Below, in pieces: positions 28,289 through 62,093 of a DNA stretch of 64,000 nt (its first letter is position 1; every line of letters begins with the position of its first letter). The stretch is from the IMG/VR virus record IMGVR_UViG_3300015375_000848, one strand, 5' to 3'. Source of the stretch: an uncultured virus (IMG/VR IMGVR_UViG_3300015375_000848). Its lineage: Duplodnaviria > Heunggongvirae > Uroviricota > Caudoviricetes. Below the pieces are notes generated by a model that did no database searches, had not been told where the DNA came from, and worked only from the letters and a program-made list of their open reading frames with translations. The position numbers and the translations under genes are program-made.

Positions 28289-28289
28289 T

Positions 28290-34702: not shown

Positions 34703-35012
34703 GGAGTGGATTGCTTTTAAAGAGCAGTTCTTAAATATGCTTTCTGTTTTAGGAGACGAAACGGATAATTTTATGTTTCCTGAAGAACCTGAAAACTTTG
34801 AAATATTTGTACACGAATGTGAAGTGCATCCAACTTTCATGAAAAAACAAGATTCTTTTAAAGTTGATTACGATTTTACATTATGTGAAACAAAAATTAG
34901 AACTTTATCCTTTTCTATATTTCGTGACTCTGCAAGAATTGAAATGACTTTAAAAACTGGAGAATTAAAAATTGACGAAGGAAAAGTAACATGGCAAGAG
35001 AACCCTTATTGA
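34680..35012 (+). CDS. Hypothetical protein
   Basis: ORF track. Confidence 0.6.
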   Translation: MPMKIKNKEWIAFKEQFLNMLSVLGDETDNFMFPEEPENFEIFVHECEVHPTFMKKQDSFKVDYDFTLCETKIRTLSFSIFRDSARIEMTLKTGELKIDEGKVTWQENPY

Positions 35013-43818: not shown

Positions 43819-46800
43819 ATGAGTACAACATTTCTAGGAGGAGACGGGTTCGGTTTTATAGGCGGTGGTGCTGGAAGCGGTACTGGGTCTGCGGGAACTA
43901 GTGGTACAAGCTTTGGTAGCTCGGGAACCAGTGGTAATTCTGGCTCTAGCGGTACTAGCGGGAATAGCGGTAGCTCTGGTACAAGTGCTTTATCTGGTAC
44001 TTCTGGAACCGCTGGCACTTCAGGAACACATGGTTCTTCAGGTTCCTCTGGAACTTCAGGATTAACTGGTTCGTCTGGAACGAGTGGTGATTCTGGCTCT
44101 AGCGGTACTAGCGGTGATGCTGGGAGTTCTGGAACATCAGGTCAATCAGGAACTTCTGGAGAAACTGGCACTTCTGGCGCAGACGGTTCTAGTGGAACCT
44201 CTGGTGAAAGTGGCACTTCAGGTGCAGACGGCTCTAGCGGAACATCTGGTGAAACTGGTACTTCAGGTGCAGACGGCTCTAGCGGAACTTCTGGAACATC
44301 AGCACAAGACGGAACAAGTGGAATAGATGGTACTTCTGGAACTAGTGGTGAATCAGGTACATCAGGTACCGATGGCTCTTCTGGAACTTCTGGTTCTAGC
44401 GGAACTTCTGGCTCTAGCGGTACATCAGCGACAGACGGTTCTTCAGGTACAAGTGGATTTGAAGGAACTTCAGGTACAAGCGGTGAAAACGGAACTTCAG
44501 GCATAAACGGTACTTCTGGTCAAGACGGCTCTTCTGGAACAAGTGGAACAGCTGGTTCAAGTGGAGAATCTGGTACATCAGGAACCGATGGGTCTTCAGG
44601 GACTTCTGGGGAATCAGGTACAACTGGTACATCAGGAACCGATGGCTCTTCAGGAACCTCTGGCTCTAGTGGGGAATCTGGTACTTCTGGAACATCTGGA
44701 GAAAGCGGAACATCTGGAGAATCAGGTAGTTCTGGCTCTAGTGGCACATCAGGAACTGATGGCTCAAGCGGTACGAGTGCAGAAACGGGAACTTCAGGTA
44801 CAGATGGTTCTTCTGGAACCTCTGGCGAAAATGGAACTTCGGGCACAAGTGGAGAAAACGGTACTTCAGGAACAGATGGAAGCAATGGAACATCTGGCAT
44901 AGATGGAACCTCTGGAACCTCTGCTACAAGCGGGTCTGCTGGTACATCTGGTACTTCAGCAACCGATGGCTCTAGCGGTACAAGTGGCGATAACGGAACT
45001 TCAGGTACAGACGGAAGCTCTGGAACTTCTGGAGCGGATGGCTCCTCTGGGACTAGCGGTACATCAGGTTCAAGTGGTACAGACGGAAGCTCTGGAACTA
45101 CTGGAACGGACGGTTCTTCTGGAACAAGTGGAGATTCAGGTACTTCAGGTACGGATGGCTCATCAGGTACTTCTGGTGAAAATGGCACTTCAGGCACTAG
45201 TGGCGAAAATGGAACTGCTGGTACATCGGGAACAGATGGCTCTTCGGGCACAGACGGCTCAAGCGGTACATCTGGAACGAGTGGCTCTTCAGGAACCGCT
45301 GGTACATCGGGTGCTACTGGCACATCTGGTACAGACGGCTCCTCTGGAACAAGTGGAGAAACGGGTACTTCAGGAACCGATGGCTCTTCTGGAACTTCAG
45401 GCGAAAACGGAACTTCAGGAACAGATGGTTCTTCTGGTACATCAGCCTCATCGGGCAGCTCTGGAACTTCAGGAACAGATGGTTCTTCTGGCACTTCAGG
45501 TACAGACGGGTCTTCAGGTACGGATGGTTCTAGTGGTACGTCAGGAACAGATGGTTCTTCAGGTACTTCGGGTACAGACGGCTCTTCAGGTACGGATGGC
45601 TCCTCTGGAACTTCTGGAGAAAATGGTTCTAGCGGTACCTCTGGCACCTCTGGTACAGCAGGAAGCTCTGGAACATCTGCAACCGATGGTTCTTCAGGTA
45701 GTTCGGGAACCTCTGGTGAAAACGGAACATCGGGAACAGACGGCTCTAGTGGTACTTCTGGCACATCTGCCAGTTCGGGTTCTTCTGGAACCTCTGGTAC
45801 AGATGGCTCTTCAGGCACAGACGGCTCAAGCGGTACTTCTGGAACCTCTGGAAGCTCGGGAACCGATGGCTCAAGTGGAACATCAGGTACAGACGGGTCT
45901 AGTGGTACTTCTGGCACATCAGCCAGTTCTGGTTCTTCTGGAACCTCTGGTACAGATGGCTCTTCAGGCACAGACGGCTCTAGCGGTACTTCTGGAACAG
46001 ATGGTTCTTCAGGAACCTCTGGTACTTCAGGAACCGATGGCTCAAACGGCACTTCTGGAACATCAGGTACAGACGGCTCAAATGGCACTTCTGGAACAGC
46101 TGGAACCTCCGCTAGCGATGGTAGTTCAGGTACATCAGGAACTGATGGCTCTTCTGGGACTAGTGGAACTTCGGGTTCTTCAGGAACATCAGGCACGTCT
46201 GGCACCTCTGGAACAAGTGGTACTGATGGAACAACGTGTGAGAGTTATACAATTATAGCTCCTTGTGGAACTACAACAACGTCCACAACCACATCTACAA
46301 CAACTACTGGTGCAGTTTGTGAGTGTTATTCATTAACTAATGATGGAGACCCCACAAATACAAATACAACAAATTATACCGATTGCGATGGCAACCCGCA
46401 GACAATAACTAATAAGGTCTTTAATTCGGCTGCTACTTATTTCTGTGCGTTATCTGGAACAATCACGTTCTCTTCTGGACTAACTGTTATTCAGGTAGCA
46501 GATACTCCTTCTACATGTAACGGGTGTGGAGCTTCTTCTACAACATCTACAACCACTTCGACCACCACGTCAGTATCTTTAGAATCTGGTAGTTACTCAT
46601 ATTCTTACACCGATTGTAATGGTACTCCAGTTTCAGGAACACTTAGCGATTGCCAGCAATTAACATTCTGTGCGATAAGAGGCTCTGTAACTTGGGCTCA
46701 TACGCTGGTGGATAATGGAGTATGTGCTGGAACAAGCGGAACATCTGGTACTTCAGGCACTTCTGGTACATCTGGTACTTCAGGCTCCTCTGGAACAAGC

Positions 46801-48840
46801 GGTTCTTCAGGAACTTCTGGTACTTCAGGCTCCAGTGGCTCTTCAGGAACTAGCGGAACCTCTGGTTCATCTGGAACTAGCGCAACAGACGGCTCTAGCG
46901 GTACTTCTGGAACAGATGGAAGCTCGGGAACTAGTGGAACAGATGGCTCTTCAGGAACATCTGGTTCTAGCGGAACGAGTGCATCTTCAGGAAGCTCTGG
47001 TACCGATGGCTCTTCTGGTACATCGGGAACATCAGGTTCTTCAGGAACCAGCGGTACTTCTGGCTCTTCTGGTACTTCTGGAACAGATGGAAGCTCTGGA
47101 ACAAGTGGTGAAAGTGGAACAGCTGGAACTTCTGGCTCAAGTGGCTCTAGCGGTACTAGTGCATCTAGCGGTACAGCTGGAACATCAGGAAACACTGGTT
47201 CCTCTGGAACATCAGGACAAAATGGAGTAGCGGGTGGATTAGTATTGTATCTAAATGAATCTGTCAATACTAGTAGTGCAATAGGAACACCTACATATAA
47301 ACAGTGGAGCGCAACTGCAACTGGAGCAGCTGAACAAACTATTACTACATCAATTGCTGGTAATACGAGAACACTTTTTGCAACTTTTGCGACTGATTCT
47401 AATGTTCCTAATGTAACCAGCATACCCTCTGGTCTTTGGGCTTGGGTAACTCATTTCTCCATAGATAGTAATGATACTCTTCAAGTAGATGTAGAGCTCT
47501 ATAAATGTGATTCAACGGGTGGTAACATAACATTATTGGGAACCACCAACCTTGATACCGAGTCCATGACCACTAACGTTATCAAGGAATTTTTTACTGA
47601 TTTATTCTTAGGTCAAACTGGTGCGAATGCTACAGATAGGCTTTACTGCCAAATCTATGTAGAACATAATGGCGGTTCAAATAAGAATATAACATTTTAT
47701 TCAGAAGGAACAAGTAATTATTCATACGCACAAACTACGTTTACTCCCCCTAGCGGAACGAGTGGAACAAGTGGTGTAAATGGAACTAGTGGTACTGCTG
47801 GCTCTTCAGGTACTTCAGCGACTTCGGGCTCTTCAGGCACAACGGGCACTTCTGGAACAGATGGCTCTAGCGGAAGCTCTGGTACCTCTGGTACATCAGG
47901 CTCTTCTGGGACAAGCGCAACAGATGGTTCTTCTGGTACATCAGCCAGCTCTGGTTCCTCTGGAACTAGCGGAACAGACGGCTCTTCGGGTACTTCAGGT
48001 TCTAGCGGTTCTTCAGGTACCTCTGGAACAGATGGCTCAAGCGGAACCTCTGGCACCTCTGGGACAAGCGGTTCTTCAGGGACAAGTGCAACAGACGGCT
48101 CTTCTGGTACATCAGCCAGCTCGGGCTCTTCTGGAACAAGCGGAACAGATGGTTCTTCGGGTACTTCAGGTTCAGATGGAAGCTCTGGAACGAGTGGAAC
48201 AGATGGCTCAAGCGGTACATCAGCCAGCTCGGGCTCTTCAGGAACAAGTGGAGTAAACGGAACTTCGGGTACAGATGGCTCTTCTGGTACTAGCGCATCT
48301 TCAGGAAGCTCTGGCACATCAGGTACTTCGGGTACAGATGGCTCTTCTGGTACATCAGCTAGCTCGGGGTCAAGTGGAACGGATGGCTCTTCAGGTACTT
48401 CTGGCTCTTCTGGAACATCAGGAACTGCTGGCTCTTCTGGAACTAGCGGAACCGATGGTTCAAGTGGTACTTCGGCATCAAGCGGTAGCTCTGGAACGTC
48501 AGGAACATCGGGTACGGCTGGCTCATCAGGTACGGCTGCTACGGATGGCTCCAGTGGCACATCTGGTGAAAACGGAACTTCGGGAACCTCTGGCTCTTCG
48601 GGAACGTCAGCTAGCTCGGGCTCAAGCGGAACGTCAGGAACCTCTGGTTCTAGTGGAACGTCAGGTTCTTCTGGAACATCAGGAACTGCTGGCTCCAGCG
48701 GAACAGACGGCTCTTCGGGAACCTCTGGAAGCTCTGGTTCTTCAGGAACTGCAGCTACGAGCGGTAGCGCAGGAACCTCTGGAAATACAGCGGAGTTTTC
48801 TGGAACAAGTAGCACTTCAATAACACTCCCATTAACTTAA
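43819..48840 (+). CDS. Giant collagen-like (Gly-Thr/Ser-Ser) fibre protein with internal Cys/Thr-rich and beta-sandwich domains
   Basis: About 1290 aa of Gly-X-Y in three blocks; globular inserts at about 46235-46730 and 47230-47750. Confidence 0.85.
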   Translation: MSTTFLGGDGFGFIGGGAGSGTGSAGTSGTSFGSSGTSGNSGSSGTSGNSGSSGTSALSGTSGTAGTSGTHGSSGSSGTSGLTGSSGTSGDSGSSGTSGDAGSSGTSGQSGTSGETGTSGADGSSGTSGESGTSGADGSSGTSGETGTSGADGSSGTSGTSAQDGTSGIDGTSGTSGESGTSGTDGSSGTSGSSGTSGSSGTSATDGSSGTSGFEGTSGTSGENGTSGINGTSGQDGSSGTSGTAGSSGESGTSGTDGSSGTSGESGTTGTSGTDGSSGTSGSSGESGTSGTSGESGTSGESGSSGSSGTSGTDGSSGTSAETGTSGTDGSSGTSGENGTSGTSGENGTSGTDGSNGTSGIDGTSGTSATSGSAGTSGTSATDGSSGTSGDNGTSGTDGSSGTSGADGSSGTSGTSGSSGTDGSSGTTGTDGSSGTSGDSGTSGTDGSSGTSGENGTSGTSGENGTAGTSGTDGSSGTDGSSGTSGTSGSSGTAGTSGATGTSGTDGSSGTSGETGTSGTDGSSGTSGENGTSGTDGSSGTSASSGSSGTSGTDGSSGTSGTDGSSGTDGSSGTSGTDGSSGTSGTDGSSGTDGSSGTSGENGSSGTSGTSGTAGSSGTSATDGSSGSSGTSGENGTSGTDGSSGTSGTSASSGSSGTSGTDGSSGTDGSSGTSGTSGSSGTDGSSGTSGTDGSSGTSGTSASSGSSGTSGTDGSSGTDGSSGTSGTDGSSGTSGTSGTDGSNGTSGTSGTDGSNGTSGTAGTSASDGSSGTSGTDGSSGTSGTSGSSGTSGTSGTSGTSGTDGTTCESYTIIAPCGTTTTSTTTSTTTTGAVCECYSLTNDGDPTNTNTTNYTDCDGNPQTITNKVFNSAATYFCALSGTITFSSGLTVIQVADTPSTCNGCGASSTTSTTTSTTTSVSLESGSYSYSYTDCNGTPVSGTLSDCQQLTFCAIRGSVTWAHTLVDNGVCAGTSGTSGTSGTSGTSGTSGSSGTSGSSGTSGTSGSSGSSGTSGTSGSSGTSATDGSSGTSGTDGSSGTSGTDGSSGTSGSSGTSASSGSSGTDGSSGTSGTSGSSGTSGTSGSSGTSGTDGSSGTSGESGTAGTSGSSGSSGTSASSGTAGTSGNTGSSGTSGQNGVAGGLVLYLNESVNTSSAIGTPTYKQWSATATGAAEQTITTSIAGNTRTLFATFATDSNVPNVTSIPSGLWAWVTHFSIDSNDTLQVDVELYKCDSTGGNITLLGTTNLDTESMTTNVIKEFFTDLFLGQTGANATDRLYCQIYVEHNGGSNKNITFYSEGTSNYSYAQTTFTPPSGTSGTSGVNGTSGTAGSSGTSATSGSSGTTGTSGTDGSSGSSGTSGTSGSSGTSATDGSSGTSASSGSSGTSGTDGSSGTSGSSGSSGTSGTDGSSGTSGTSGTSGSSGTSATDGSSGTSASSGSSGTSGTDGSSGTSGSDGSSGTSGTDGSSGTSASSGSSGTSGVNGTSGTDGSSGTSASSGSSGTSGTSGTDGSSGTSASSGSSGTDGSSGTSGSSGTSGTAGSSGTSGTDGSSGTSASSGSSGTSGTSGTAGSSGTAATDGSSGTSGENGTSGTSGSSGTSASSGSSGTSGTSGSSGTSGSSGTSGTAGSSGTDGSSGTSGSSGSSGTAATSGSAGTSGNTAEFSGTSSTSITLPLT

Positions 48841-48867: not shown

Positions 48868-51600
48868 ATGCCTAGTTACTCTAACATAACTATAACCACT
48901 AACACTGGACTAGCCTATAAAGCAAATGATTTTGTCCAGCTAAGTAATAGCTCAACTGATTACATAATTGGTAGGGTTGTATCATACAATCCCGCTAATG
49001 GTCAGATGGTTGTTACACCTTATTTCTTTGAGGGTAGTGGAACGTTTACTAGCTGGGAAGTAAATCTTACGGGTGCTTTTGGTACTTCTGGAACTAGCGG
49101 AACAACGGGCACTTCGGCTTCATCAGGCTCTTCGGGAACCTCCGCAACTTCAGGTAGCTCTGGTAACTCTGGCTCCTCTGCAACTAGCGGAACAACGGGC
49201 ACTTCAGGAACTTCAGGCACTGCGGGAGCTAGCGGTCAAAGTGCAAGCTCTGGTACAGCGGGTTCTAAGGGCTCTTCTGGTACGAGTGGTACAAACGGTT
49301 CCTCTGGTACTAATGGCGAGTCTGGCTCTACGGGAACATCGGGAACAACTGGAGAGAGTGGCGGAACAAACGGAGTTTCAGGCTCTTCAGGTCTCTCTGC
49401 CTCTTCTGGAACGTCAGGGGCTAGTGGGTCTACGGGCACCTCTGGACTATCTGGTGGAACATCAGGAACCAGCGGAAGCTCGGGAACCAGTGGCTCTTCA
49501 GGCGAAGCCAGCTCTTCTGGTACTAGTGGTACTAGCAATGGTACATCAGGAGTATCGGGAACCAGTGGCTCAAGCGGTACAAGTGCAACAAATGGCTCTA
49601 ATGGAACATCTGGAACCTCTGGAGAGAGTACTAATGCTACGGCTGGTACTGCTGGAACATCAGGGGTGTCAAATACAAGCGGTTCAAGCGGTACATCTGC
49701 TACAGCTGGCTCCTCTGGCACGTCAGGCTCTACGGGTGCTGCTGGTGTATCTGGTAATAGCGGTACATCAGGTTCTAGCGGAACGGCTGGAACAAACGGT
49801 GCTGCCGTTACCACACCTTCTAGCGGTTCTAGCGGTACAGCGGGCTCTTCGGGAACATCAGGTTCAAGTGGTGCAACGCCAACACAAGGCGTAAGTGGGC
49901 AAAGTGGTAGCTCGGGAACCAGCGGGACATCAGGCTCCAGTGGTGCTGCACAAAGTCAAGGCTCAAATGGGACTAGTGGTAGCTCGGGAGTATCAGCAAC
50001 AAGTGGGTCTAATGGAACTTCTGGCTCTTCAGGCGTTAGTGGTTTAAGTGGCACTAATGGCTCGGCTGGCACTAGTGGTTCAAACGGCTCTTCTGGTGTT
50101 TCTGGGGCTAGTACTGTTTCTAGCATTTCTGGTACTTCTGGTACATCAGGTTCAAGTGGTGCGGGTCAATCGAATGGTTCTTCTGGAACCTCTGGCTCAA
50201 ATGGAACGAACGGTACATCGGGTTCGAGCGGTGCTGTTGCATCCAACGGTGTTTCGGGAACTTCTGGCTCTAGCGGTACCAGCGGTGTGAGCGGAGGCAG
50301 TGGCTCTAACGGAGCTAATGGAGGCTCTGGCGTAAGCGGGGGTAGTGGCGTTTCTGGAGGCAGTGGAACGAGCGGGTCAAGTGGAGCAGCTGGAATGAGT
50401 GGAGGAAGTGGCTCTAGCGGTACCAGCGGTGTGAGCGGGGAAAACGGTGTATCTAGAAGCAATGGTGTAGCGGGAATTAATGGTTCTAGTGGTACAAGCG
50501 GTACAACGGGAAATAATGGACTTTTTGGTTTATCTGGGAAAAGTGGTATTTCTGGCAGCTCTGGAACTTCGGGAGTAGCTGGAGCTAGCGGAGCTGGCAC
50601 AACTTCTGGTCTTTCTAGTAGTAGTGGTACCTCTGGTAGTTCAGGCAGCAACGGCCCCAGTGGAGCTAATGGAACAAGTGGTGTTAATGGAGGTGCGGGC
50701 GCAAATGGAACGAGTGGGTCATCTGGTACTAATGGAAAAAATAATAGCTCAATTTTTGGTGTTGATTGGGCAACAACATGTGGTAGCTGCAACGTTGTAC
50801 CTTGTGGCTCAGTAGCTTCAGTTAATGGAGAATATAATTTAACTAATACTGTAACTGTCAAACAAAGTTGTACTACGGGGGTATTTGGTAGATATACTAG
50901 TAATGCGTGCTGCGCAAGGTGTAGCTTTATGTTAGGCGGGGGAGATAATGCAATTGGTGAAGCTGGTGGCACGTGCCCTATAGCATATGCAGCAATATTG
51001 GGAGGAAATACCAATAAAATTTCTCCTGCTGCTTGTGCTTTTAATATGTGTTATAACGCAATTTTAGGTGGCTATGGCAATCGTATTACTGAAAGTGTTT
51101 GTTATGGTGCAATAGCAGGAGCTATAAACGGATGTATAAAAGGAGCTAGCTGTTTTAGTTTAGTACTTGGTGGTAATTATCTTACAATTACTGGCCAGAC
51201 ATTTAAAACATGTGTTCCAAACTTGCAAAAAACTAGTGGTAAATTTTCAATTCCTCATCCAAATCCAGCAAAAAAGTGTGTAATGCTAAACCACTCCTTT
51301 GTTGAAACGCCAACAGCTGGAGATAATATATATAAATATAGAGTTCAGACTGAAAATTGCAAAGCAACGATAGAGCTCCCAGATTACTACAAATATTTAA
51401 ATTGTAATGACCAAGTTCACGTAAGCCCAATAGATAGCTTCGGTAACGCATATGGAATGATAGATAGTTGTCAGGCTTCGATATCTATTTGCACTACAGA
51501 AGAAGGAAAATATGACGTAATTTTGATAGGAACAAGAAAAGATGAAGATGCATTAAAAACAAGGATAGCAAATGTAGGAGCAGAACAAATATGTTTATAG
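48868..51600 (+). CDS. Collagen-like fibre protein paralog A
   Basis: Shared N-terminal TGL.Y...VVSYN..G....W.V.L.G domain; about 550 aa Gly-X-Y; Cys-rich ILGG repeats; C-terminal HP.P..H..VETP..GDN..LPDYYK..GTRKD domain. Confidence 0.85.
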   Translation: MPSYSNITITTNTGLAYKANDFVQLSNSSTDYIIGRVVSYNPANGQMVVTPYFFEGSGTFTSWEVNLTGAFGTSGTSGTTGTSASSGSSGTSATSGSSGNSGSSATSGTTGTSGTSGTAGASGQSASSGTAGSKGSSGTSGTNGSSGTNGESGSTGTSGTTGESGGTNGVSGSSGLSASSGTSGASGSTGTSGLSGGTSGTSGSSGTSGSSGEASSSGTSGTSNGTSGVSGTSGSSGTSATNGSNGTSGTSGESTNATAGTAGTSGVSNTSGSSGTSATAGSSGTSGSTGAAGVSGNSGTSGSSGTAGTNGAAVTTPSSGSSGTAGSSGTSGSSGATPTQGVSGQSGSSGTSGTSGSSGAAQSQGSNGTSGSSGVSATSGSNGTSGSSGVSGLSGTNGSAGTSGSNGSSGVSGASTVSSISGTSGTSGSSGAGQSNGSSGTSGSNGTNGTSGSSGAVASNGVSGTSGSSGTSGVSGGSGSNGANGGSGVSGGSGVSGGSGTSGSSGAAGMSGGSGSSGTSGVSGENGVSRSNGVAGINGSSGTSGTTGNNGLFGLSGKSGISGSSGTSGVAGASGAGTTSGLSSSSGTSGSSGSNGPSGANGTSGVNGGAGANGTSGSSGTNGKNNSSIFGVDWATTCGSCNVVPCGSVASVNGEYNLTNTVTVKQSCTTGVFGRYTSNACCARCSFMLGGGDNAIGEAGGTCPIAYAAILGGNTNKISPAACAFNMCYNAILGGYGNRITESVCYGAIAGAINGCIKGASCFSLVLGGNYLTITGQTFKTCVPNLQKTSGKFSIPHPNPAKKCVMLNHSFVETPTAGDNIYKYRVQTENCKATIELPDYYKYLNCNDQVHVSPIDSFGNAYGMIDSCQASISICTTEEGKYDVILIGTRKDEDALKTRIANVGAEQICL

Positions 51601-51621
51601 TAATTAATTAACCCAAAATAT

Positions 51622-51978
51622 ATGTTAGTAGCATTAATTAACCCGCCAGCAAAAAAAGTTCTTCAAACAACACCGTTTGCAACTGAAGAAATTTTAGCAC
51701 CTCAAATGACCGCAAAGTGTACAAGACTTGTAATTGGTGATTCATCTGAAACAATAGAATTTGATATTCGTTTTGGTGAAGTCTACAATACGACTAATCC
51801 AGATGGTTCAATCCGACCAATGTTTAAGCTTATGGTGCACCACCATTTACGATTTACCCAAAGTGAACTATCAGATTGGGGCACAGACGATAGTTATGTA
51901 TATTATAAAATAGCGGAAAGGCTTGGATTTCAAATAACTTCATTAACAGAGGTACAAGGATTAAATTTCGGCAACTAA
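51622..51978 (+). CDS. Hypothetical protein (possible fibre assembly factor)
   Basis: Sits between fibre genes; WGTDDSY....IA..LG motif. Confidence 0.55.
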   Translation: MLVALINPPAKKVLQTTPFATEEILAPQMTAKCTRLVIGDSSETIEFDIRFGEVYNTTNPDGSIRPMFKLMVHHHLRFTQSELSDWGTDDSYVYYKIAERLGFQITSLTEVQGLNFGN

Positions 51979-51981
51979 TAC

Positions 51982-54804
51982 ATGCCTCTATCTAACATAA
52001 ATATTACTGTTAGCACGGGGCTGTCCTACGTGGCGGGTGACTTCGTGCAAGTAAGTTATGATGCAAATAATTACATCGTTGGAGAGGTTGTTTCTTACAA
52101 TTCCAACAGTGGGGCTATGGTTATTGCCCCTACTACTTTTGTAGGGAGTGGAACGTATTCAAACTGGTCGGTTAATCTTACTGGCTCTAATGGTACTGCT
52201 GGTACTTCGGGAACATCTGGAACGGATGGAAGTAGTGGTTTAAGTAGAACGAGTGGCTCCGCTGGAACAAGTGGTACGACAGCTACTGCTGGAACATCAG
52301 CAAATTCTGGCTCTAGCGGTACCTCTGGTACATCAGGAACAAGTGGTACAACGGCTCAATCTTCAACAGCGGGCTCTAGTGGTACATCTGGCTCTTCGGC
52401 TACAAGTGGCACTAGTGCAACATCTGGAAGCTCTGCGACATCTGGTACGTCTGCTTCGTCTGGGACAAGTGGTTTAGTTGATGGAACCTCTGGAACGTCA
52501 GGGACTTCTGGTTCTGCTGGATTAAGTGGCTCTTCTGGCACGTCTGGGAGCTCTGGAACGCACGGTTTACAAGACGGTACCTCTGGAGCAACTGGCACCT
52601 CTGGCTCTTCAGGAACGTCAGGTTCAAACGGCACTAGCGGTGCTAGTATAAATATAGTAGGCTCTTCAGGAAGTAGTGGGGTCAGTGGTAGTTCAGGTAC
52701 GGCAGGCTCTTCTGGTGTTTCAAATATTTCAGGTACTAGTGGTGTGGCGGGCAGCTCGGGACTTTCCAATTCAAACGGCTCTGCGGGCACTAGTGGGCTA
52801 AGCAATACGGCTGGTTCTAACGGTACTGCTGGGTCTTCAGGCACTGGAGGTACAAATGGAACTGCTGGCTCAAACGGGGTAAGTGGCTTATCTGGTACTT
52901 CTGCAACTTCTGGTTCTTCTGGAACGAATGGTGTTTCAGGAACATCGGGGGCAAATGGAACCTCTGGAAGCTCTGCTACTACGGGTACCAACGGTACTAA
53001 CGGCTCAACGGGTACTAATGGTGTGAGCGGTACATCGGGTTCTTCAGCTTCGTCTGGAACCAGTGGCACAAACGGTACATCTGGCTCCTCTGGAATAAAC
53101 GGACAGATAGGCTCATCTGGCACAACTGGTACTAGCGGGACATCAGGCTCTTCAGGTGGAGCGGGAGCGAGCGGAACCTCTGGCTCAAACGGAACAAATG
53201 GAACATCGGGTAGCTCTGGTGCAGCAAGTTCCAGTGGCGCAAATGGGGTATCTGGCACGTCTGGAACCTCTGGAAGCTCTGGTACATCAGGCTCTAGTGG
53301 TACTTCTGGGCTTAGTGGAACATCAGGTTCTTCAGGAACATCGGGAAGCAATGGAACCTCTGGCTCATCGGGCACGTCTGGACTAAGTAATACCTCTGGC
53401 TCTTCTGGCACGTCTGGAACGAGTGGCTCAAACGGAACGTCTGGCTCCTCTGGAACCAACGGTTCTTCAGGTAGTTCTGGCACCTCTGGAACAAGTGGAA
53501 CATATGGTGTTTTTGGACTTAACGGTTCTTCGGGTACTTCAGGAAGCACTGGAACAAGTGGAACGTTCGCTTCAAATGGTACATCAGGCTCAAACGGGAC
53601 TACTGGCTCTAACGGAACTACTGGCACGGCTGGAACGAGTGGAACAAACGGAGTAAACGGAGTTAATGGAACTAGTGGAACAAACGGCACTAATGCTACA
53701 TCGGGTAGTAGTGGAAAAAGCTATGGTGGAAATACAGACCCAGCAACATCGGGAACCAGTGGAACATCGGGAGCTACTGGGGCAGCTGGAGTTAGCGGTG
53801 TTAACGGAGCAGCGGGCGCAAATGGAGCTAATGGAGTTAGTGGTACAAGCGGTTGCTTGTTTGATACCCCATTTATTGATTATTCCAGTCAAAACATGTA
53901 TCCATGTGCTGGATTTGGCGGAAATACAGTTAATAAAGCTGAAAATACTCTTTTGTCTGGTACAGCCAATTCTATTTGCATGCTATGCTGTAATGTTGAT
54001 TCATTATATCATAATTTTATAGGGGGTGGCTATAATAATTCAATTGTACTAAATAAATTTGACAATTACGATATTGAAGCAATTTCAAATGGCAATGCAA
54101 TCGGAGGGGGAGTAAGCAACGAAATTTGGGTATATCTCGACCAACAGGGTGGATTCAATGAATTGAACGCAATAGGAGGAGGTAGTGGAAATTCCATAAA
54201 AAACTGCATAGGTGGAAAGGGTTGGGGTTTTGGTAATCATTCTTCAAATGCTATAGCAGGCGGTAGACTCAATGGAATGTGTGCTGGGGCTTATAATAGT
54301 GCAATTCTGGGAGGATGTTCTAGTATTATTTGTTCTAATACAACATGTAGTGTTGTCGGAGGTTCTGGTCTTACTTTAGATGGCATATTTGGTGAAGCAA
54401 CCTTTGATGCAATAGCTAAAATATCAACAAACTTTGCTATTAAACATCCCAATCCAGATAAATGCTCCACTTGGCAACTTCGTCATGCAAACGTAGAGTC
54501 ACCTACAGCGGGTGATAATATATATAGATATAAAGTAAAAACAAATAACTGCCAAGCTTATGTAGAGCTTCCATCATATTACAAGTTTTTAAATGAATTT
54601 GACCAAGTGTGGGTTAGCCCTACAGACCATCTTGGAAAAGCATGGGCGTGCGTTAATGCTGACCAAACATGTGTTGAAGTAAACTCAAATTGTGATGGCG
54701 ATTACTACCTTTTAGTTGTTGGAACAAGAAAAGATGAATGTGGTAAAAAATTCTGGCAAGGAACCGAACACTATTCTGTACCAACTCATATTGTTGATTA
54801 TTAA
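51982..54804 (+). CDS. Collagen-like fibre protein paralog B
   Basis: Same architecture as 48868. Confidence 0.85.
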   Translation: MPLSNINITVSTGLSYVAGDFVQVSYDANNYIVGEVVSYNSNSGAMVIAPTTFVGSGTYSNWSVNLTGSNGTAGTSGTSGTDGSSGLSRTSGSAGTSGTTATAGTSANSGSSGTSGTSGTSGTTAQSSTAGSSGTSGSSATSGTSATSGSSATSGTSASSGTSGLVDGTSGTSGTSGSAGLSGSSGTSGSSGTHGLQDGTSGATGTSGSSGTSGSNGTSGASINIVGSSGSSGVSGSSGTAGSSGVSNISGTSGVAGSSGLSNSNGSAGTSGLSNTAGSNGTAGSSGTGGTNGTAGSNGVSGLSGTSATSGSSGTNGVSGTSGANGTSGSSATTGTNGTNGSTGTNGVSGTSGSSASSGTSGTNGTSGSSGINGQIGSSGTTGTSGTSGSSGGAGASGTSGSNGTNGTSGSSGAASSSGANGVSGTSGTSGSSGTSGSSGTSGLSGTSGSSGTSGSNGTSGSSGTSGLSNTSGSSGTSGTSGSNGTSGSSGTNGSSGSSGTSGTSGTYGVFGLNGSSGTSGSTGTSGTFASNGTSGSNGTTGSNGTTGTAGTSGTNGVNGVNGTSGTNGTNATSGSSGKSYGGNTDPATSGTSGTSGATGAAGVSGVNGAAGANGANGVSGTSGCLFDTPFIDYSSQNMYPCAGFGGNTVNKAENTLLSGTANSICMLCCNVDSLYHNFIGGGYNNSIVLNKFDNYDIEAISNGNAIGGGVSNEIWVYLDQQGGFNELNAIGGGSGNSIKNCIGGKGWGFGNHSSNAIAGGRLNGMCAGAYNSAILGGCSSIICSNTTCSVVGGSGLTLDGIFGEATFDAIAKISTNFAIKHPNPDKCSTWQLRHANVESPTAGDNIYRYKVKTNNCQAYVELPSYYKFLNEFDQVWVSPTDHLGKAWACVNADQTCVEVNSNCDGDYYLLVVGTRKDECGKKFWQGTEHYSVPTHIVDY

Positions 54805-54806
54805 AC

Positions 54807-57482
54807 ATGCCGTTTAGCAATATAAATATTACCACTAGTACGGGTCTTGATTACAAAATCAATGACTTCATAAATTTGCAGTATGATGCAAACACTATCA
54901 TTTATGGTCGTGTGGTTTCATACAATTCGAATACGGGAGCTATGACCCTTACTCCTCTTTCTTTTTCAGGCGCAAACGGAGCATATAATTCATGGGAAGT
55001 ACAACTTAGTGGTCAACACGGCTCTGCTGGAACAAACGGAACAGCTGGTTCATCAGGTACTTCTGGCTCTGCTGCTAGCTCTGGTACGTCTGCATCTTCA
55101 GGTAGTTCTGCTTTAAGTGGAACTAATGGTGAAAATGGCTCTTCTGCTTTAGATGCCTTAAGTGGGTCTACTGGAACAGCTGGGACAGCTGGGGAATCAG
55201 GTACATCTGGAGCGAGTGGTTCTTCAGCAATCAATGGAACAGATGGCTCAAATGGAACAAGTGCAGCTAGCGGTCAATCTGCAACTAGTGGCACATCTGG
55301 TTCTAGAGGCTCTTCTGCCTCATCTGGAACAAGTGGTACATCTGGTTCAAATGCAACCAGCGGTCTAGCAGCTAGCTCTGGAACGTCAGGAACAAGTGGT
55401 ACAAACGCTTCTAATGGCACTTCAGGCTCTTCAACCCAATCTGGGTCTTCTGGTACCTCTGGCACTACGGCTACCTCTGGAAGCTCTGGAACCTCTGGTT
55501 CTGCTGGAACAACGGGTGCCAATGGGTCAAGTGGAACGCAAGGTTCAAGAGGAACTACGGGAACTAGTGGAACATCTGGTTCTGTAGGTACTAGCGGTAC
55601 ATCAGGTTCAACTGGTACTACTGGTGCTAACGGCTCAAGTGGTAACAGCGGTCAATCAGCTACCTCTGGCTCAAATGGCACAAACGGCACATCAGGTTCA
55701 ACGGGTGCTAATGGTGCTTCTACAATTTCTTCTACATCGGGTTCAAACGGCACATCAGGAACAAATGGTTCAAGTGGCGTTTCAGGCTCTGCAACAGCTA
55801 ATGCAACAAGTGGCTCATCAGGTACTTCTGCCTCAAATGGTTCAAGCGGTGTATCAGGAGCATCAACACTAAGTCAGTTAAGCGGTACTTCTGGTACTAG
55901 TGGTTCTACTGGAACTAATGGTACGTCAGGAGTCTCTGGTGCATCTGGAACCTCTGGGTCTTCTGGAACTGGTGGTGCAAATAGCTCAAGTGGAACTTCT
56001 GGTGTGTCTGGAACCAGTGGCAGCTCTGCTAGCTCTGGAACCTCTGGAACAAGCGGTTCAAGCGGTGCAAATGGTGTTTCTACGGGCTCTGGAACATCAG
56101 GCTCTTCAGGATTAAGCGGATTAACGGGTAATTCTGGCGGTTCTGGAGTTTCAACGGCTTCGGGAACATCAGGGTCTTCTGGAGTAAGTGGCACTTCAGG
56201 CTCGGCTGGCGCAAGTGGAGTTAGTGGCGCAAGTGGAACCTCTGGCTCATCTGGTGTTTCAGGAACGAGTGGTAGCAGTGGAACTAGTGGGCTTTCGGGT
56301 CTAAGCACTAGCTCTGGGACTAATGGAACAAGCGGTGTTTCAGGTTCTTCAGGTACAAGCGGGGTTAGTGGTGTAAGTGGTAGCTCTACTACAAGCGGGG
56401 TTAGCGGTACTTCAGGCTCTTCTGGGAATAGTGGTGTTTCTGGTCAAAGTTCAACATCTGGCTCAAACGGAACAAATGGAAGCAGTGGTTTAAGTGCTCT
56501 TTCTGGGCTGTCAACAAGCTCTGGAACTTCTGGTACTTTTGGTTCTAATGGTCTTAGTGGTGCTTCAGGGGTAGCGGGGGGAGCAGGAAGCAATGGAACA
56601 AGTGGTGCTGCTGGAGCAGCTGGTTCTAGTGGAACAAATGGTGATAGCGGGACAACTACGTGCTATGCAATTATTTATACAAATAGTTGTTCTAGCTTAG
56701 TAACTCCTTGTGTTGGTCATACAATGGCCAATACTTATAACTCCGCAGCAATTGGTGGTTGTGCACACACTCTTTGTGATACAAGTTATACCGTTGCTCT
56801 TGCGGGTGCAAGGAATTGTTTTTGCGTTGCAGACTCACAATATAGTGTAATACTTGGAGGAAGTGATAATAATCATAACTGTGATTGTGGTTATAATGTC
56901 GATATAGTCAGTTGCTGTTCACTAATGTCAGGTCGCTATAATGTTATTGTTGCTTCAGCTGCAAGCTGTACGGGAACAACAGCTAATACTTATCAATACT
57001 CATATATTTATGCTAGCTGTCTTGCATGTCTAGCAGATTATACTAATTCAGGAATTCTTGGTAGGTGTACCTTTGCTGCAACTGCTGCAAATACAACTTA
57101 TTTTAATAACATTGATAAAGCAAGTGGTGGTTTTACCATTCCCCATCCAGACCCACAAAAAACTAATACACATAGATTAGTACATCATTTTGTTGAAACA
57201 CCATCAGAGGGGGATAACCTATATAGATTTAAAATTTTAGTAGAAAACGGCTTCAAAAGATTTGAATTACCAGACTATTATAAGTTCTTGAATAAAAATA
57301 CAATAACAACAGTTTCTCCAGTTGGCCATTTTGGAAATGCATATGTTACCGTATTTGAAAATGAAAACTATATAGAAATTACAGCTGATACAGACGGAGA
57401 ATATAATATTTTACTGCTCGGAACAAGGAAAGACAGAGATATTAACGAAGTCTATCAAGGTATTGAAGTGCTATCAAAATGA
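54807..57482 (+). CDS. Collagen-like fibre protein paralog C
   Basis: Same architecture as 48868. Confidence 0.85.
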   Translation: MPFSNINITTSTGLDYKINDFINLQYDANTIIYGRVVSYNSNTGAMTLTPLSFSGANGAYNSWEVQLSGQHGSAGTNGTAGSSGTSGSAASSGTSASSGSSALSGTNGENGSSALDALSGSTGTAGTAGESGTSGASGSSAINGTDGSNGTSAASGQSATSGTSGSRGSSASSGTSGTSGSNATSGLAASSGTSGTSGTNASNGTSGSSTQSGSSGTSGTTATSGSSGTSGSAGTTGANGSSGTQGSRGTTGTSGTSGSVGTSGTSGSTGTTGANGSSGNSGQSATSGSNGTNGTSGSTGANGASTISSTSGSNGTSGTNGSSGVSGSATANATSGSSGTSASNGSSGVSGASTLSQLSGTSGTSGSTGTNGTSGVSGASGTSGSSGTGGANSSSGTSGVSGTSGSSASSGTSGTSGSSGANGVSTGSGTSGSSGLSGLTGNSGGSGVSTASGTSGSSGVSGTSGSAGASGVSGASGTSGSSGVSGTSGSSGTSGLSGLSTSSGTNGTSGVSGSSGTSGVSGVSGSSTTSGVSGTSGSSGNSGVSGQSSTSGSNGTNGSSGLSALSGLSTSSGTSGTFGSNGLSGASGVAGGAGSNGTSGAAGAAGSSGTNGDSGTTTCYAIIYTNSCSSLVTPCVGHTMANTYNSAAIGGCAHTLCDTSYTVALAGARNCFCVADSQYSVILGGSDNNHNCDCGYNVDIVSCCSLMSGRYNVIVASAASCTGTTANTYQYSYIYASCLACLADYTNSGILGRCTFAATAANTTYFNNIDKASGGFTIPHPDPQKTNTHRLVHHFVETPSEGDNLYRFKILVENGFKRFELPDYYKFLNKNTITTVSPVGHFGNAYVTVFENENYIEITADTDGEYNILLLGTRKDRDINEVYQGIEVLSK

Positions 57483-58349
57483 TTTCAATGATTTTATTAC
57501 GTTATCAATATTGAATATTTCTGTTTCTGTATTATAAGGAAACTCGTGTAGGGCTCCTACAATATTATATTTAGACAGAAATGCATTTCTTAAGTCAGGC
57601 TTTTTTGTTTCTGGATTTGATAAAATATTATCATGTAAATCATATCCAAACATTTTAGGAGTATTTGCAATCCATAAAACAGTTGATTTTAATTGAAGAG
57701 CAGCTGCCAAATGCTGGGCAAAACTATCTATAAGTAATCTTTTTTTACTAATAGCTAAAACTGTAGCTAACCCTTTGTAAGAATCATGAATCGGTATGGT
57801 ATTTGAATATGATATTTGGTCTTCCCTTCGTATGTGAAATATGTTATAAACATGGCTAAACTCTTCAATGATAGCATTTACAACACAAGATGGCATATCC
57901 CTTGCCCAAGAGTATTTTAAGTCTTGTTGGCCACCCCCATTAGTTTGTATTGCCATAATCGGCTTATCTGAAGCATACTTATTAGAGTAAAATTTGAATT
58001 CTCTCTCTGTAAGGAAAGCCTCTGGCATTTCTCCATTGTAAATGATATTATTCATTCTACACCAAGTAGCAATCGTATGTTCTTTCTTTAAAATGTGTTC
58101 AGTGTGAACATATGGTTCGTTAGCAAATACTAGTACATCATCTTGACCTTCCACATACTTTTGATAAAAATAGGACTCTTGGTGATGCGCAAAAGACATG
58201 TCCACATAAGGAACATTCAAAAAGACATCAGGATGTCCAGTAACGACAATCAAAAAGCTATCTGGGTATTGTTTTTTTATGGCTTTACAAACAGCGGTAG
58301 CCATTATTGATTTGCCCATTCCGCCACTTATACTGAAAATTATATTCAT
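57474..58349 (-). CDS. GT9-like (heptosyltransferase-fold) glycosyltransferase
   Basis: GGMGK.IM.TAV..AIKK.YP, LLIDSF.QH.AAAL...STVLW, FGY. Confidence 0.75.
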   Translation of the reverse strand: MNIIFSISGGMGKSIMATAVCKAIKKQYPDSFLIVVTGHPDVFLNVPYVDMSFAHHQESYFYQKYVEGQDDVLVFANEPYVHTEHILKKEHTIATWCRMNNIIYNGEMPEAFLTEREFKFYSNKYASDKPIMAIQTNGGGQQDLKYSWARDMPSCVVNAIIEEFSHVYNIFHIRREDQISYSNTIPIHDSYKGLATVLAISKKRLLIDSFAQHLAAALQLKSTVLWIANTPKMFGYDLHDNILSNPETKKPDLRNAFLSKYNIVGALHEFPYNTETEIFNIDNVIKSLKSF

Positions 58350-58350: not shown

Positions 58351-59973
58351 TTATTTTGTATATATTCCGTAAGGTGATACTAGCACATCTATGATTCCAC
58401 TATTCAAATGGTTAAAAGCATTTTCAGGTGTTTCAACTATTGGCTCATTGTGTATGTTAAACGATGTATTGACTAATATTCCTACACCAAGTACATTATT
58501 TTTATAGGATTTCAATATTTTATAAAATAAATTATTACTTTTTTCGGTTACAATTTGAATCCTTGCTGTTTTGTCTACTGGGTGCACAACAGTTGGTATT
58601 TTTTCTTTCCAATCATCTTTAGTGTCAACAAGCATAGTCATAAATTCGGCAGTATATTTTGATTTCTGTATGTTAAATACTGTATCAACATCTTCGTCTA
58701 AAATAGCTGGAGCAAAAGGCATGTAGTCATTTCTTTCTAGCTTTTTATTAAGTATCTCATAAGTTTCTGGGTGAGTACAGTCACAAATTATGCTCCTATT
58801 ACCAAGTGCTCTTGCTCCGTGCTCGCTTCTACCTTGATAAAGACCTATAATTTTTTTATTTTTTAATAAATCGCATACAGATTCAATGTTTAGGTCTTCT
58901 CTCTTATACCCTATTGCAGCGTTATCAAATTCCTCTTTACTATATTCATTACCTAAAAAAACATCGTTTAACCTAAATGGCTTTAACTCTGGGTGTACTT
59001 TTTTAAGAGCTGCTATACAACAGCCATATGCTAGACCCTCATCTCCCATAGGGGGCAAAACAAAAACCTCATTGAATAGGGGTAATTCATTAATCTTTTT
59101 ATTCAGTTTTACATTAGCAAATATTCCCCCACTCAAAGCTAACTTCTTTGTATGTGGAACTCGCTGATGTAGATTTTTAATAAGTTCAATAATCTTTTCT
59201 TCAAATAAAATTTGAGCAGTACATGCTATATCCTGAATAGCTGATTTTGTTTTCCAATATTTAGAACCAATCGCTTCATAAAATTTAGTATAAAGGTCTA
59301 AATATATTTGACCAGCTTCAATATGGTGATTATCAGCATCTGTTTGAGAGCCCTCTATCTTTATCACGTCTTTCCAAGCATGATATAAATGGTGCCACAT
59401 GTTTCCATGTCCAGATAAACCGACTATTTTACCCTCGTCCTTAAGCCTTTTGAACCCTAACAATTCTGTGATGGCTGCGTAGAAATGACCAAGAGACTTT
59501 CTCTGGATTGTAATGCCATCAAGATACTCTAGTCTCCCTCTGGTGCCTAGATATGTCCTAGAGCTGTGACCATTTACGCCACCACTTGCATCTGCACAGA
59601 AAACAAGTGTATCTTCTTGAAAATCAGATAAATAGTAAGATAGGTTAGCGTGGGCTTCATGGTGGTCAACAAATATGTATTTTTCTTCAGCTATCTCATA
59701 TCTAAAAGCTGCAAAGAAAATTTCTTTAGCTGTTTGGTATGGAAAAAATGAAGTGAAGTAATCCATTTCTTCAAATGTTACACCATACCGTTGTTTTAAG
59801 CAATTTATTGATTGTACTGGATATCTTTCAAAGCTATTATCAAAATCCACATATGGTTTGATTCTTGTAAGTCTTTCTTCTTCTATTACAGCGACAACTT
59901 CTCCATCTCTAAAATAGCAAGCCCCGCATGAGTGTGCACCTGCTATGAATCCTAGAATTTTACAGCTTTTCAT
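58351..59973 (-). CDS. Carbamoyltransferase (NodU/CmcH family)
   Basis: EEERLTRIK, HH.AHA, SLG.FY..T..LGF....EGK..GL, GGIFANVKLN, P.MGD.G, RALGNRSI, PFAP, TARIQ, NTSFN.H.EPIV. Confidence 0.95.
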   Translation of the reverse strand: MKSCKILGFIAGAHSCGACYFRDGEVVAVIEEERLTRIKPYVDFDNSFERYPVQSINCLKQRYGVTFEEMDYFTSFFPYQTAKEIFFAAFRYEIAEEKYIFVDHHEAHANLSYYLSDFQEDTLVFCADASGGVNGHSSRTYLGTRGRLEYLDGITIQRKSLGHFYAAITELLGFKRLKDEGKIVGLSGHGNMWHHLYHAWKDVIKIEGSQTDADNHHIEAGQIYLDLYTKFYEAIGSKYWKTKSAIQDIACTAQILFEEKIIELIKNLHQRVPHTKKLALSGGIFANVKLNKKINELPLFNEVFVLPPMGDEGLAYGCCIAALKKVHPELKPFRLNDVFLGNEYSKEEFDNAAIGYKREDLNIESVCDLLKNKKIIGLYQGRSEHGARALGNRSIICDCTHPETYEILNKKLERNDYMPFAPAILDEDVDTVFNIQKSKYTAEFMTMLVDTKDDWKEKIPTVVHPVDKTARIQIVTEKSNNLFYKILKSYKNNVLGVGILVNTSFNIHNEPIVETPENAFNHLNSGIIDVLVSPYGIYTK

Positions 59974-61060
59974 TTTCTTCTATTTTTTTTATGACTTTTT
60001 CGCTTGTTATTAATTTGTGACATTCAAAATGTCGTGGAGTATCTTCATGGCGTGGGCACCACATCCAATTTCCCTTGTCGAATCTAAATTTTTCATCATG
60101 CCAACAAGAATGGCAAATGCTTTCATCGTAGATTCTTATTGTATTTGTAGTAAACTCATGGTCTTTATCGGTGAAGTTTGATATCATGTATACCCTCTTT
60201 CTTAAAGACCAAGCAAGCCAAGATAAACCACTGGAAAGACCCATGTAGAACTCACTATGATATATATAATTCATCGTGTTTTCGTAAGATATATCATTAA
60301 TTCTCAATAGGTTATTAAATTTTGACGTGACTTGACCTTGCATGTCATCTTCTTTAGATATTTCTACAACTTTATACCCTTTTTCAGTTAGGTAATCTAT
60401 AACATCTTGCCAGTAATACCACAATTTACATTGCGATGTAGAGTATATTGATATACAAACGTATTTATCATTAATTGGCTTTTCTTTTGGAGTAAAATCT
60501 ATTTCTGGAAGAATCTCCCTAAACGGCAAGTTTAGAATGTTTGTTGCGCTCTGTTGTAGTGGTATTAGAATAGGGTTAACTGGTTCTTTATCCTTTTCCC
60601 AGAACCATCCCACTTCAATCATTGCAATCAAATCTTTTACAACTTCTCCCCTCTCTGCAAACTCTAACTCTGGGTATTTGTTCTTGAAAAGATAATTTTT
60701 AAATGTAGATACAATTACTTTGCAATCATAGTGTTTTGCAAATTCCAAACAATATGGAATCCATGCCAAAGTATCGCCTAAAGCTTTACTTTCAAAAGAA
60801 ATAAAAACACGTTTTCCTTTTAATAGTTCTAAAAAATTTACTTGAGTAATGGTTCTTCCATCATATCTAACTATTACAGCGATATCCGAAAGGTATTTTC
60901 TAGATAATTGTGCCCAATGTCCTACCTTGAGTTTTACTTTGTATATTTCACTATTTGATTTTCTATCTACGAAAGAAACATCATACTCTCTATCCTTACC
61001 TTCGTCATCGGTTATTTGAAAGTACAAACCCTTAATATGATTAATATTATATTTTATCAT
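59960..61060 (-). CDS. Autotransporter O-heptosyltransferase-like (Aah/TibC family) glycosyltransferase
   Basis: GKRV.I.F....LGDTLAW.PY...F...Y.C, YVCI...ST..CK.W, GLSSGLSWLAW, ISNFT....EF, C..CW...W.WCP.H...FEC...I. Confidence 0.85.
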   Translation of the reverse strand: MIKYNINHIKGLYFQITDDEGKDREYDVSFVDRKSNSEIYKVKLKVGHWAQLSRKYLSDIAVIVRYDGRTITQVNFLELLKGKRVFISFESKALGDTLAWIPYCLEFAKHYDCKVIVSTFKNYLFKNKYPELEFAERGEVVKDLIAMIEVGWFWEKDKEPVNPILIPLQQSATNILNLPFREILPEIDFTPKEKPINDKYVCISIYSTSQCKLWYYWQDVIDYLTEKGYKVVEISKEDDMQGQVTSKFNNLLRINDISYENTMNYIYHSEFYMGLSSGLSWLAWSLRKRVYMISNFTDKDHEFTTNTIRIYDESICHSCWHDEKFRFDKGNWMWCPRHEDTPRHFECHKLITSEKVIKKIEENEKL

Positions 61061-61064: not shown

Positions 61065-62093
61065 TTAGATGTTAGAATATACATCAATGTATTTCTGTTG
61101 AATAGCCTCTGAACTTAAATGATGAAACTGGCTTACAGCATAATACATGTTTGAAAGAGTTTTTGCTGTATGATTCCAATCATATTGAAGTCTAAGCGAC
61201 TCCATTGTGTTTCGTATTTCAGAATAATTATTTATAATTTCATTGATTCTTGATACGACAGCATCTGTTGTGATTTCGGTGAGCTTAAACAAACCATATA
61301 TTTCTTTAGAACCTTTATATGTAGCTACAGTGGGTAGGCAGCAGCTCGCAGCTTCAAGTAGAGTTAAATTAGGATGTCCAGCCTCAAGCATAGATGGATG
61401 TAAAAAAATTGAATGGCTTTGATATATAGATAATAATTCTTCTTCAGTTGGATTTCTAGCAATAATATTTAATTTATCATATTCTTTTAAATCTTTGTGA
61501 ATTTCAAAAAATCTTTCGTTTGCATCAGTTCCAACAATAGTGATAGGAAGGTCAAGCTCTCTTGCTGCTTCTACTCCATAACGAAATCCTTTTCTGTCAA
61601 ATCCGTAGTCTCCAGCTAATCCATTATTAGCTACCATGAGTAATCTTATTGGTTCTGATAGGATTTCTGAAGGTCTAAAAAATTCAGTATTTACTGCATG
61701 CGATAGATAAAATAGTTTGTCTGTAGCATCGAAATAATCAATTAAATATTCAGCATGAGTTATAGAAAATATTGATTTTTTCATAGCTTCAAGATTGTGC
61801 TTGAAACAGTAGCTGTCCTTTCCGTAGTGTTCAGTATGGTGGTCATGTAGAGAAAATATGTATGGAATAGAATGTTTGTCTAGCTCTAAAGCAAGATTGC
61901 CCATGTGACAATGTATAAAGTCATATTCTCTCCATGTGTCAATTAATTCGTTTAAGTGCTTAATATGTACTTCATGCCCTAAATTCTCTAATGAAGATTT
62001 ATACTCTCTTACTATTTTTTCTACTGCACCCCAGCCCATTTGACCAACGGGCTTAATTGGTATCATACCAGTTGTAATTTGACAGATTTTCAT
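61065..62093 (-). CDS. Glycosyltransferase family 4 (GT-B)
   Basis: G.IPI...GWGAVEK, HCH, DRKG, FLHPS.LEAGHP.LTLLEA. Confidence 0.85.
   Translation of the reverse strand: MKICQITTGMIPIKPVGQMGWGAVEKIVREYKSSLENLGHEVHIKHLNELIDTWREYDFIHCHMGNLALELDKHSIPYIFSLHDHHTEHYGKDSYCFKHNLEAMKKSIFSITHAEYLIDYFDATDKLFYLSHAVNTEFFRPSEILSEPIRLLMVANNGLAGDYGFDRKGFRYGVEAARELDLPITIVGTDANERFFEIHKDLKEYDKLNIIARNPTEEELLSIYQSHSIFLHPSMLEAGHPNLTLLEAASCCLPTVATYKGSKEIYGLFKLTEITTDAVVSRINEIINNYSEIRNTMESLRLQYDWNHTAKTLSNMYYAVSQFHHLSSEAIQQKYIDVYSNI

Follow-up and report, generated by a model that had tools for sequence, protein, structure and literature searches.

Three adjacent genes of an uncultured virus encode collagen-like chains that very probably assemble 1:1:1 and in register into one fibre segment. 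The genes, here called A, B and C or the trio, lie in a 64,000-nucleotide stretch of DNA (the window) of the IMG/VR record IMGVR_UViG_3300015375_000848, which comprises 73,942 bases, is 64% complete and contains endolysins, and which therefore represents a bacterial virus. Our favored, and probable, reading is that the assembly is a true triple helix, a collagen-like heterotrimer. Each chain consists of an N-terminal domain of 67-68 amino acids, a Gly-X-Y stalk, a head and a C-terminal domain of 125 amino acids. The N-domains of B and C are 55-58% identical to that of A and the C-domains 45-46%; the heads are divergent and rich in Cys, Gly and Asn. A preliminary description of the window had reported this identical architecture together with Gly-X-Y tracts estimated from coordinates at about 554, 557 and 547 residues; the measured spans of 557, 559 and 549 residues are 2-3 residues longer and bear it out. 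Counted without inserts, the stalks of A, B and C hold 184, 185 and 183 triplets. The independently assembled locus L123 encodes a corresponding trio with stalks of 557, 565 and 549 residues, so the window trio is not a misassembly.

Recent duplication or gene conversion could by itself have left the paralogs with matched lengths, without any structural coupling, and paralogs do recombine: one locus (L055) encodes chains with near-identical repeats, and the chimeric chains described below record exchange between paralogs. For the window lineage this explanation is largely refuted, and we regard it as very improbable. The repeats and tips diverge, as the preliminary description had stated, with window stalks having 13-17% of their triplets in common when best aligned by shifts of up to 3 triplets, compared with a background of 9-11%, and the length match is therefore not due to recent copying. 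Paralogous stalks in general agree in 7-30% of their triplets when best aligned, which is near background, and orthologous stalk windows align at 70-95%. N-domains are likewise closer to the same chain type in other loci (70% identity) than to different types within one locus (56%).

Relatives were gathered by four viral scans and one metagenome scan (the latter represented by the best 80 of 187 matches), yielding 197 loci of which 102, including the window, carry at least one distal, trio-type gene. We call a locus bounded if it contains the tail of the upstream base-fibre gene P0 and at least 1.2 kb of downstream sequence, a definition that excludes single-gene forms. Three distal genes are found in 28 of 28 bounded loci, which are partly redundant, and in 22 further loci, with the remainder mostly cut by contig ends. 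Four distal genes occur in none of the 102 loci, and neither two nor four are ever seen in bounded loci. Single-gene forms exist, namely L079 and, in the same genomic slot, L012, L028, L038 and L042. One of them, L079 (9992-13540), has a stalk interrupted regularly by 5 residues as well as a canonical S74 site and could serve as a homotrimer control. The N-domain tree groups type A and type C each in a clade (support 95/92 and 100/96), with B as the unresolved remainder. Chain typing was consistent in 60 of 60 cases using labels taken from this tree, although it is less clean in short trios, and each locus keeps one A, one B and one C. A further trio in L055 (3-8994) shares the C domain but has no N barrel; its stalks (one cut, the others 540 and 549 residues) consist of homogenised repeats, it includes a 123-amino-acid small gene, and it is possibly an independent triplication.

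The stalk lengths of the three chains change together. From 50 three-gene loci, 24 complete trios were hand-picked and collapsed to 13 length classes. Stalks are matched within 2.5% in 21 of the 24 trios over a six-fold range of 131-800 residues and in 11 of the 13 classes (8 of 10 for long forms alone). None of 100,000 permutations reached 11 of 13, and the match is thus not due to chance. Insert-free triplet counts in relatives include 264/264/264, 230/230/229, 182/181/181 and 43/44/44, while the P0 tracts drift (345/270/285 in relatives whose A chains are 95-98% identical). The preliminary description had asked whether relatives always keep exactly three length-matched copies and had named independent variation of copy number and length as the outcome that would speak against a heterotrimer; copy number is constant in bounded loci, lengths are locked, and the hypothesis survived.

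Register is also conserved within the stalks. Parsing of the stalks revealed a cassette of inserts (+1, +1, +1 and, optionally, +2 residues) that is present in two chains and absent from the third. It is located at residues 97 and 100 of the two chains in the window and in L143, at 219/220 in L141 and L157, at 443/443 in L146 and at 82/84 in L135, so that its position shifts between lineages yet remains level across chains. Another kink pair is level at 337/345, again in two of three chains. Four loci (L129, L132, L133 and L144) contain the cassette twice, with the second copy in C and A. Comparison of L133 with the window indicates that the 800-residue forms are chimeras in which chain A goes on with the sequence of window B (+80 triplets), chain B with that of C (+81) and chain C with that of A (+80), while L135 equals L133 minus 86, 85 and 85 triplets. 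This cyclic swap of C-terminal halves is echoed by the C-domain tree and by the gene order A-C-B, and, being cyclic, it would leave the handedness of the chain order in a three-chain helix unchanged. Worked out by hand, +80/+81/+80 agrees with a stagger of one residue; 6 of 7 near-equal patterns would do so as well, and we give it low weight. The distance between neighboring inserts is 30 residues in 29 of 50 cases and 27 residues in 16. Imino-poor regions adopt a 10/3 helix (PMC7824840), one turn of which corresponds to about 30 residues, so the inserts would lie on one face and the rod would bend. Interruptions incommensurate with the triplet repeat have been proposed to kink collagen helices, and according to the same source there are no structures of them (PMC11923368).

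The spectrum of glycine replacements provides the strongest test for a heterotrimer at the sequence level. One counting rule was applied over 19 loci, which are related and in which several P0s are partial. P0 contains 332 in-frame replacements in 5116 triplets, 331 of them Ala (26 of 26 in the window P0), and 21 single-gene relatives contain 89 in 5065 triplets, 84 Ala and 5 Ser. The trio chains contain 656 in 6632 triplets and 299 of these are not Ala, including Thr, Ser, Asn, Arg, Gln, Pro and others. Replacements other than Ala or Ser are found in P0 at 1 of 20 loci and in the trio at 20 of 20. Damage by glycine replacement scales with residue size and is larger in homotrimers (PMC10765305), and non-Ala replacements would be tolerated in the trio because a defect in a heterotrimer touches one strand and a defect in a homotrimer three. 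Separate homotrimers A3, B3 and C3, whether they are equally long alternative tips carried by different base fibres or lie side by side in a bundle, would instead bring Arg, Gln, Pro, Asn or Thr to the helix axis in every one of the three strands, something never seen in the single-copy fibres. Equal reach also does not call for counts such as 264/264/264 while the P0 tracts drift, and two or four copies are never found in bounded loci. Homotrimers would be in keeping with the stated homotrimeric nature of prokaryotic collagen-like proteins (PMC8968730), with the single-gene homotrimer forms of the same virus family and with the exchange of heads among chain types; a P0 trimer would fit A3 equally well, and a side-by-side bundle would lock length and register too. 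Taken together, we consider homotrimers unlikely. Of the two options raised in the preliminary description, co-assembly at 1:1:1 is thus favored over three homotrimeric tips by the level kinks, the concerted lengths and the replacement spectrum.

Table 1. Features of the fibre locus and downstream genes, in window coordinates.
Feature	Coordinates	Strand	Remarks
P0, single-copy base fibre	43819-48840	+	1673 amino acids; three Gly-Thr/Ser-Ser tracts parted by two globular inserts
P0 C-terminal strand	48796-48828	+	matches positions 7-17 of the intact 86-position barrel
Chain A	48868-51600	+	open reading frame, 910 amino acids
Chain A N-terminal barrel without first strand (type A)	48868-49071	+	
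Chain A Gly-X-Y stalk	49072-50742	+	557 residues, 184 triplets
Kink cassette in A	49360-49635	+	inserts at stalk positions 97, 128, 156 (+1 each) and 187 (+2)
Chain A head (predicted YadA/UspA1-like beta-roll) and C-terminal beta domain	50743-51600	+	
Small gene	51622-51978	+	118 amino acids; between A and B; accompanies the trio in relatives
Chain B	51982-54804	+	940 amino acids; N barrel 51982-52182, stalk 52183-53859 (559 residues, 185 triplets), then head and C domain
Kink cassette in B	52480-52650	+	+1 inserts at stalk positions 100, 131 and 156, level with A
Chain C	54807-57482	+	891 amino acids; N barrel 54807-55010, stalk 55011-56657 (549 residues, 183 triplets, no frameshift), then head and C domain
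Protein without assigned family	57474-58349	-	291 amino acids; beside Pro-free trios; possible sugar transferase (RfaC E 0.08, weak)
Carbamoyltransferase (NodU/CmcH type)	58351-59973	-	
Aah/TibC-type protein O-heptosyltransferase	59960-61060	-	TIGR04414 256.9 bits (cut-off 200); TibC 4rap E 1.5e-44
GT4-like glycosyltransferase	61065-62093	-	

The composition of the stalks is unusual for a collagen. The chains score 166-186 bits against PF01391 (cut-off 27.2) and contain Gly-X-Y runs of up to 23 triplets, at least 6 being the threshold for membership. Pro makes up 0.5, 0.2 and 0% of the A, B and C stalks, charged residues 1-2% and Ser plus Thr 47-49%, and 65% of Y positions are Ser. In-frame glycine replacements number 22, 22 and 31, about one per 8 triplets. 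The stabilising X/Y content of collagens (Pro/Hyp or Lys-Asp/Glu bridges) is absent from the window stalks, while short relatives contain 6-14% Pro. The trio works like an ABC collagen, but with these stabilising residues missing its assignment to the collagen fold itself is tentative. These same features, low Pro and charge, high Ser and Thr and frequent replacements that include bulky residues, would suit chains that associate 1:1:1 in register but form an untwisted polyglycine II/polyproline II trimer, a bundle or a glycan-stiffened rod, and untwisted polyproline II trimers and polyglycine II bundles are known (S16 gp38, snow-flea antifreeze; PMC11869133). We judge such an arrangement to be improbable, since in short trios the frame of the stalk passes directly into Gly-Pro-Thr/Gln collagen, homologs encoded by single genes contain hundreds of triplets in which no glycine is replaced, the regular turns that a hairpin bundle needs are absent and the insert spacing of about 30 residues fits a 10/3 helix.

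P0 likely docks the three chains through a strand that completes their N-terminal barrels, as judged from alignments. The preliminary description had placed the trio on a trimeric base fibre, and P0, which may itself be a homotrimer, is a candidate for this component; the stalk is not that of a typical Pro-rich collagen, and the structure may not be a tail fibre. The intact form of the N-domain, found inside P0-like proteins, has an extra first strand and is predicted to be a small beta-barrel (predicted local distance difference test score 87). The trio N-domain aligns to positions 21-86 of the 86-position intact domain, and the strand missing from each chain corresponds by alignment to the P0 C-terminal strand, which could thus act as donor strand for A, B and C. 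In the single-gene loci L038 and L042, an intact barrel, an unbroken stalk, a head and a C-domain are found in one protein. Docking of this kind fits ABC and A3 alike. Searches of BFVD with the barrel model returned 23 matches at E ≤ 0.001, solely uncharacterised viral collagen proteins, and matches in the ESM Atlas were limited to viral clusters without names. Foldseek searches of the PDB gave no match at E ≤ 0.001 for either predicted model, and profile searches of PDB sequences with the C-domain, the barrel and the capsid candidate gave none. A protein search with residues 1-72 of A confirmed 0 of 88 candidates and a scan of genome contigs 0 of 13; among cultured phage records, the C domain had no match and the N domain was found in 2 unannotated metagenomic records. 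In L066, L067, L087 and L095, two genes each encode a part of the N barrel of one trio chain. In three of these loci (L067 7169-8577, L095 12968-14828, L066 6509-8568) an accessory domain is joined to the first part; as a side reading, the sequences suggest a second use of strand complementation.

The distal ends of the chains resemble known adhesins and, weakly, tailspikes in predicted fold. The head is a predicted beta-roll similar to UspA1 (Z 12.3, root-mean-square deviation 2.4, 118 aligned residues). YadA/UspA1-type heads pack as three separate rolls, which would permit unequal chains. The fold of the C domain is weakly similar to the Pam1 tailspike (Z 7.9) and R2 pyocin tips (Z 7.0), and no Pfam or PDB sequence match was found for this domain in the window chains. 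Peptidase_S74 (PF13884) was not detected in the C domain of window chain A or in the whole chains and is present in L066, L077 and L079. The small gene between A and B, whose relatives in short trios belong to DUF7936, may encode a tip cap or assembly factor; no match to it was found in the single-gene forms (L079, L012, L028, L038 and L042).

Genes downstream of the trio point to glycosylation of the fibre. TibC-type family members heptosylate many serines (PMC7142665), and the TibC-type enzyme of the window may modify the Ser/Thr-rich stalk, where O-glycosylation would likely stabilise the Pro-free helix. HldE/HldD-like genes scored below cut-off, and other glycosyltransferases are found downstream. 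A 2OG-Fe(II) oxygenase gene lies near Pro-containing trios in 11 of 11 cases and none lies near Pro-free trios within the DNA examined, whereas the 291-amino-acid gene lies near Pro-free trios in 11 of 11 cases with downstream DNA; these counts represent two lineages and not 22 trials. Together with the TibC-type gene (window 59960-61060), HldE/HldD-like genes, a second GT9 gene, a sulfotransferase and an APS kinase (L198 3164-9046) form a putative self-contained virion glycosylation kit.

Several points weigh against the heterotrimeric triple helix. All evidence for it is sequence or prediction. Pro-free Ser/Thr triplets have a low triple-helix propensity. The loci were retrieved via A/C-type motifs and are mutually related, making the counts non-independent. 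Heads plus C domain are 274-314 residues long and heads have been exchanged between types. Charge complementarity between chains is clear only in L077 and L095 among the 24 trios, and the window stalks are nearly uncharged. The P0-strand match spans 11 columns with an E value of 0.029 and is weak alone. L152 lacks the cassette and cannot be mapped onto L172 or L167, and hence provides no replicate. Mutual avoidance of glycine replacements across chains was not seen, coincidence being above chance in 3 of 17 loci and equal to chance elsewhere; non-Ala replacements lie near a partner defect more often than by chance in only 3 of 10 loci. In model heterotrimers the first chain with a Gly-to-Ser substitution costs most stability (PMC10765305), so defects in one strand are not cheap. 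Finally, stalks are mismatched in L123 (2.9%), L139 (439/462/462) and L179 (513/530/680), and in the incomplete L138 (463/459+/438) and L167 (530/594). L138 and L139 otherwise have the same sequence; 8 triplets are missing from one chain in L138 and from another in L139, in both cases at an exact repeat of 97-104 nucleotides, and A of L167 lacks 66 residues that L166 has. The differences in L138, L139 and L167 all lie at exact repeats of 73-104 nucleotides and reflect either assembly collapse or real slippage, while chain C of L179 contains an inserted domain of 176 amino acids.

Two features of these loci deserve separate mention. In the charge-paired trios of L077 (10001-14273) and L095 (10001-14828), A and C are acidic, in contrast to a basic chain B with 10-11 Lys/Arg. 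In L175 (1172-4378) and L179 (6423-9548), one trio chain carries a looped-out globular insert in mid-stalk (PA14, or Lcl_C-like with a score below cut-off).

In our model of the heterotrimer, A, B and C would wind 1:1:1 into one staggered triple helix that makes up the outer part of a fibre on the virion, with a stalk of about 160 nm. This part would dock on upstream P0, whose three C-terminal strands would each complete one barrel. One-sided inserts about 30 residues apart would add up to a fixed bend, which a three-fold symmetric homotrimer could not achieve, and glycans on Ser and Thr would stand in for proline as stabiliser. Three different beta-roll heads would create one asymmetric tip with three specificities. 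The system may have arisen from an intact-barrel gene that was split after strand 1, followed by triplication of the outer half. In its fullest form this amounts to a natural Pro-free ABC collagen outside animals, with chains selected by type-specific split barrels on three base-fibre donor strands, O-heptosylation instead of hydroxyproline and one-turn inserts programming a bend, possibly on a tailless membrane virion; we put this combination forward tentatively, as a possibility less probable than its core.

Animal ABC collagens and C1q similarly combine three chains of matched length, interruptions of some chains at one level that lead to a kink and a chain-specific non-collagenous domain, and a tripeptide requirement has been described for C1q (PMC11869133). 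In contrast to these, the trio is viral, shows no detected homology, has almost no Pro/Hyp or Lys-Asp bridges, carries type identity in an N-terminal barrel and appears to dock on a base fibre encoded separately. Prokaryotic and phage collagen-like proteins (PF01391: Scl2, BclA, Pasteuria Pcl and phage 80alpha FibU) also have a Gly-X-Y stalk between N and C domains but are described as homotrimers (PMC8968730), whereas the trio is a fixed three-gene set with Ser at Y and no Pro. For Pasteuria, heterotrimers have only been speculated on (PMC7743900), and Thr-rich collagen triplets have been rationalised by glycosylation (PMC11923368). Short trios and single-gene L079 end in PF13884 like chaperone-bearing Peptidase_S74 fibres, while the window chains end in an unrelated beta domain. 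YadA/UspA1 trimeric autotransporters with Aah/TibC modifiers share the predicted beta-roll head and an adjacent TibC-family gene; the trio differs from them in having no autotransporter barrel, being virus-encoded and having only a presumptive enzyme target. A search of largely open-access main texts turned up no natural collagen heterotrimer from a virus or prokaryote, and the accessible portions of PMC7048315, PMC11869133, PMC10811340 and PMC11456595 describe no fibre heterotrimer of this kind.

A natural three-chain system folding in the bacterial cytoplasm would supply a short module that selects chains, of use in producing heterotrimeric collagen recombinantly. The natural series of relatives would make testable the effect of incommensurate interruptions and whether glycosylation alone replaces proline. 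The trio also suggests a motive for fibre-gene triplication, namely that the fibre would be bent by design and carry three different receptor-binding heads at one tip.

We use the term fibre rather than tail fibre because the virion is possibly tailless. No terminase (PF03237) was found in any of 4 records, which are 47-75% complete, and no head or tail PHROG was found in the scanned open reading frames save a weak lytic-tail match to the SLT gene. The window encodes a P-loop ATPase (34991-35809), which by its motifs we take to be A32/FtsK-like, and a conserved beta-rich protein of 234 amino acids (36193-36897) with 785 homologs, a 171-amino-acid paralog in L198 (10936-11451) and no family match. 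Many short, C-terminally membrane-anchored proteins are encoded around these two genes. As a hint, the virus is possibly of a tailless membrane-containing type with two paralogous jelly-roll capsid proteins. Elsewhere in the window, large polyvalent-type proteins (ART-PolyVal, DUF5661, DUF2958) and an AAA/DUF7192 pair are encoded at 13397-25221, and three different cell-wall hydrolases (glucosaminidase, SLT and GH19) lie close together at 25221-29103.

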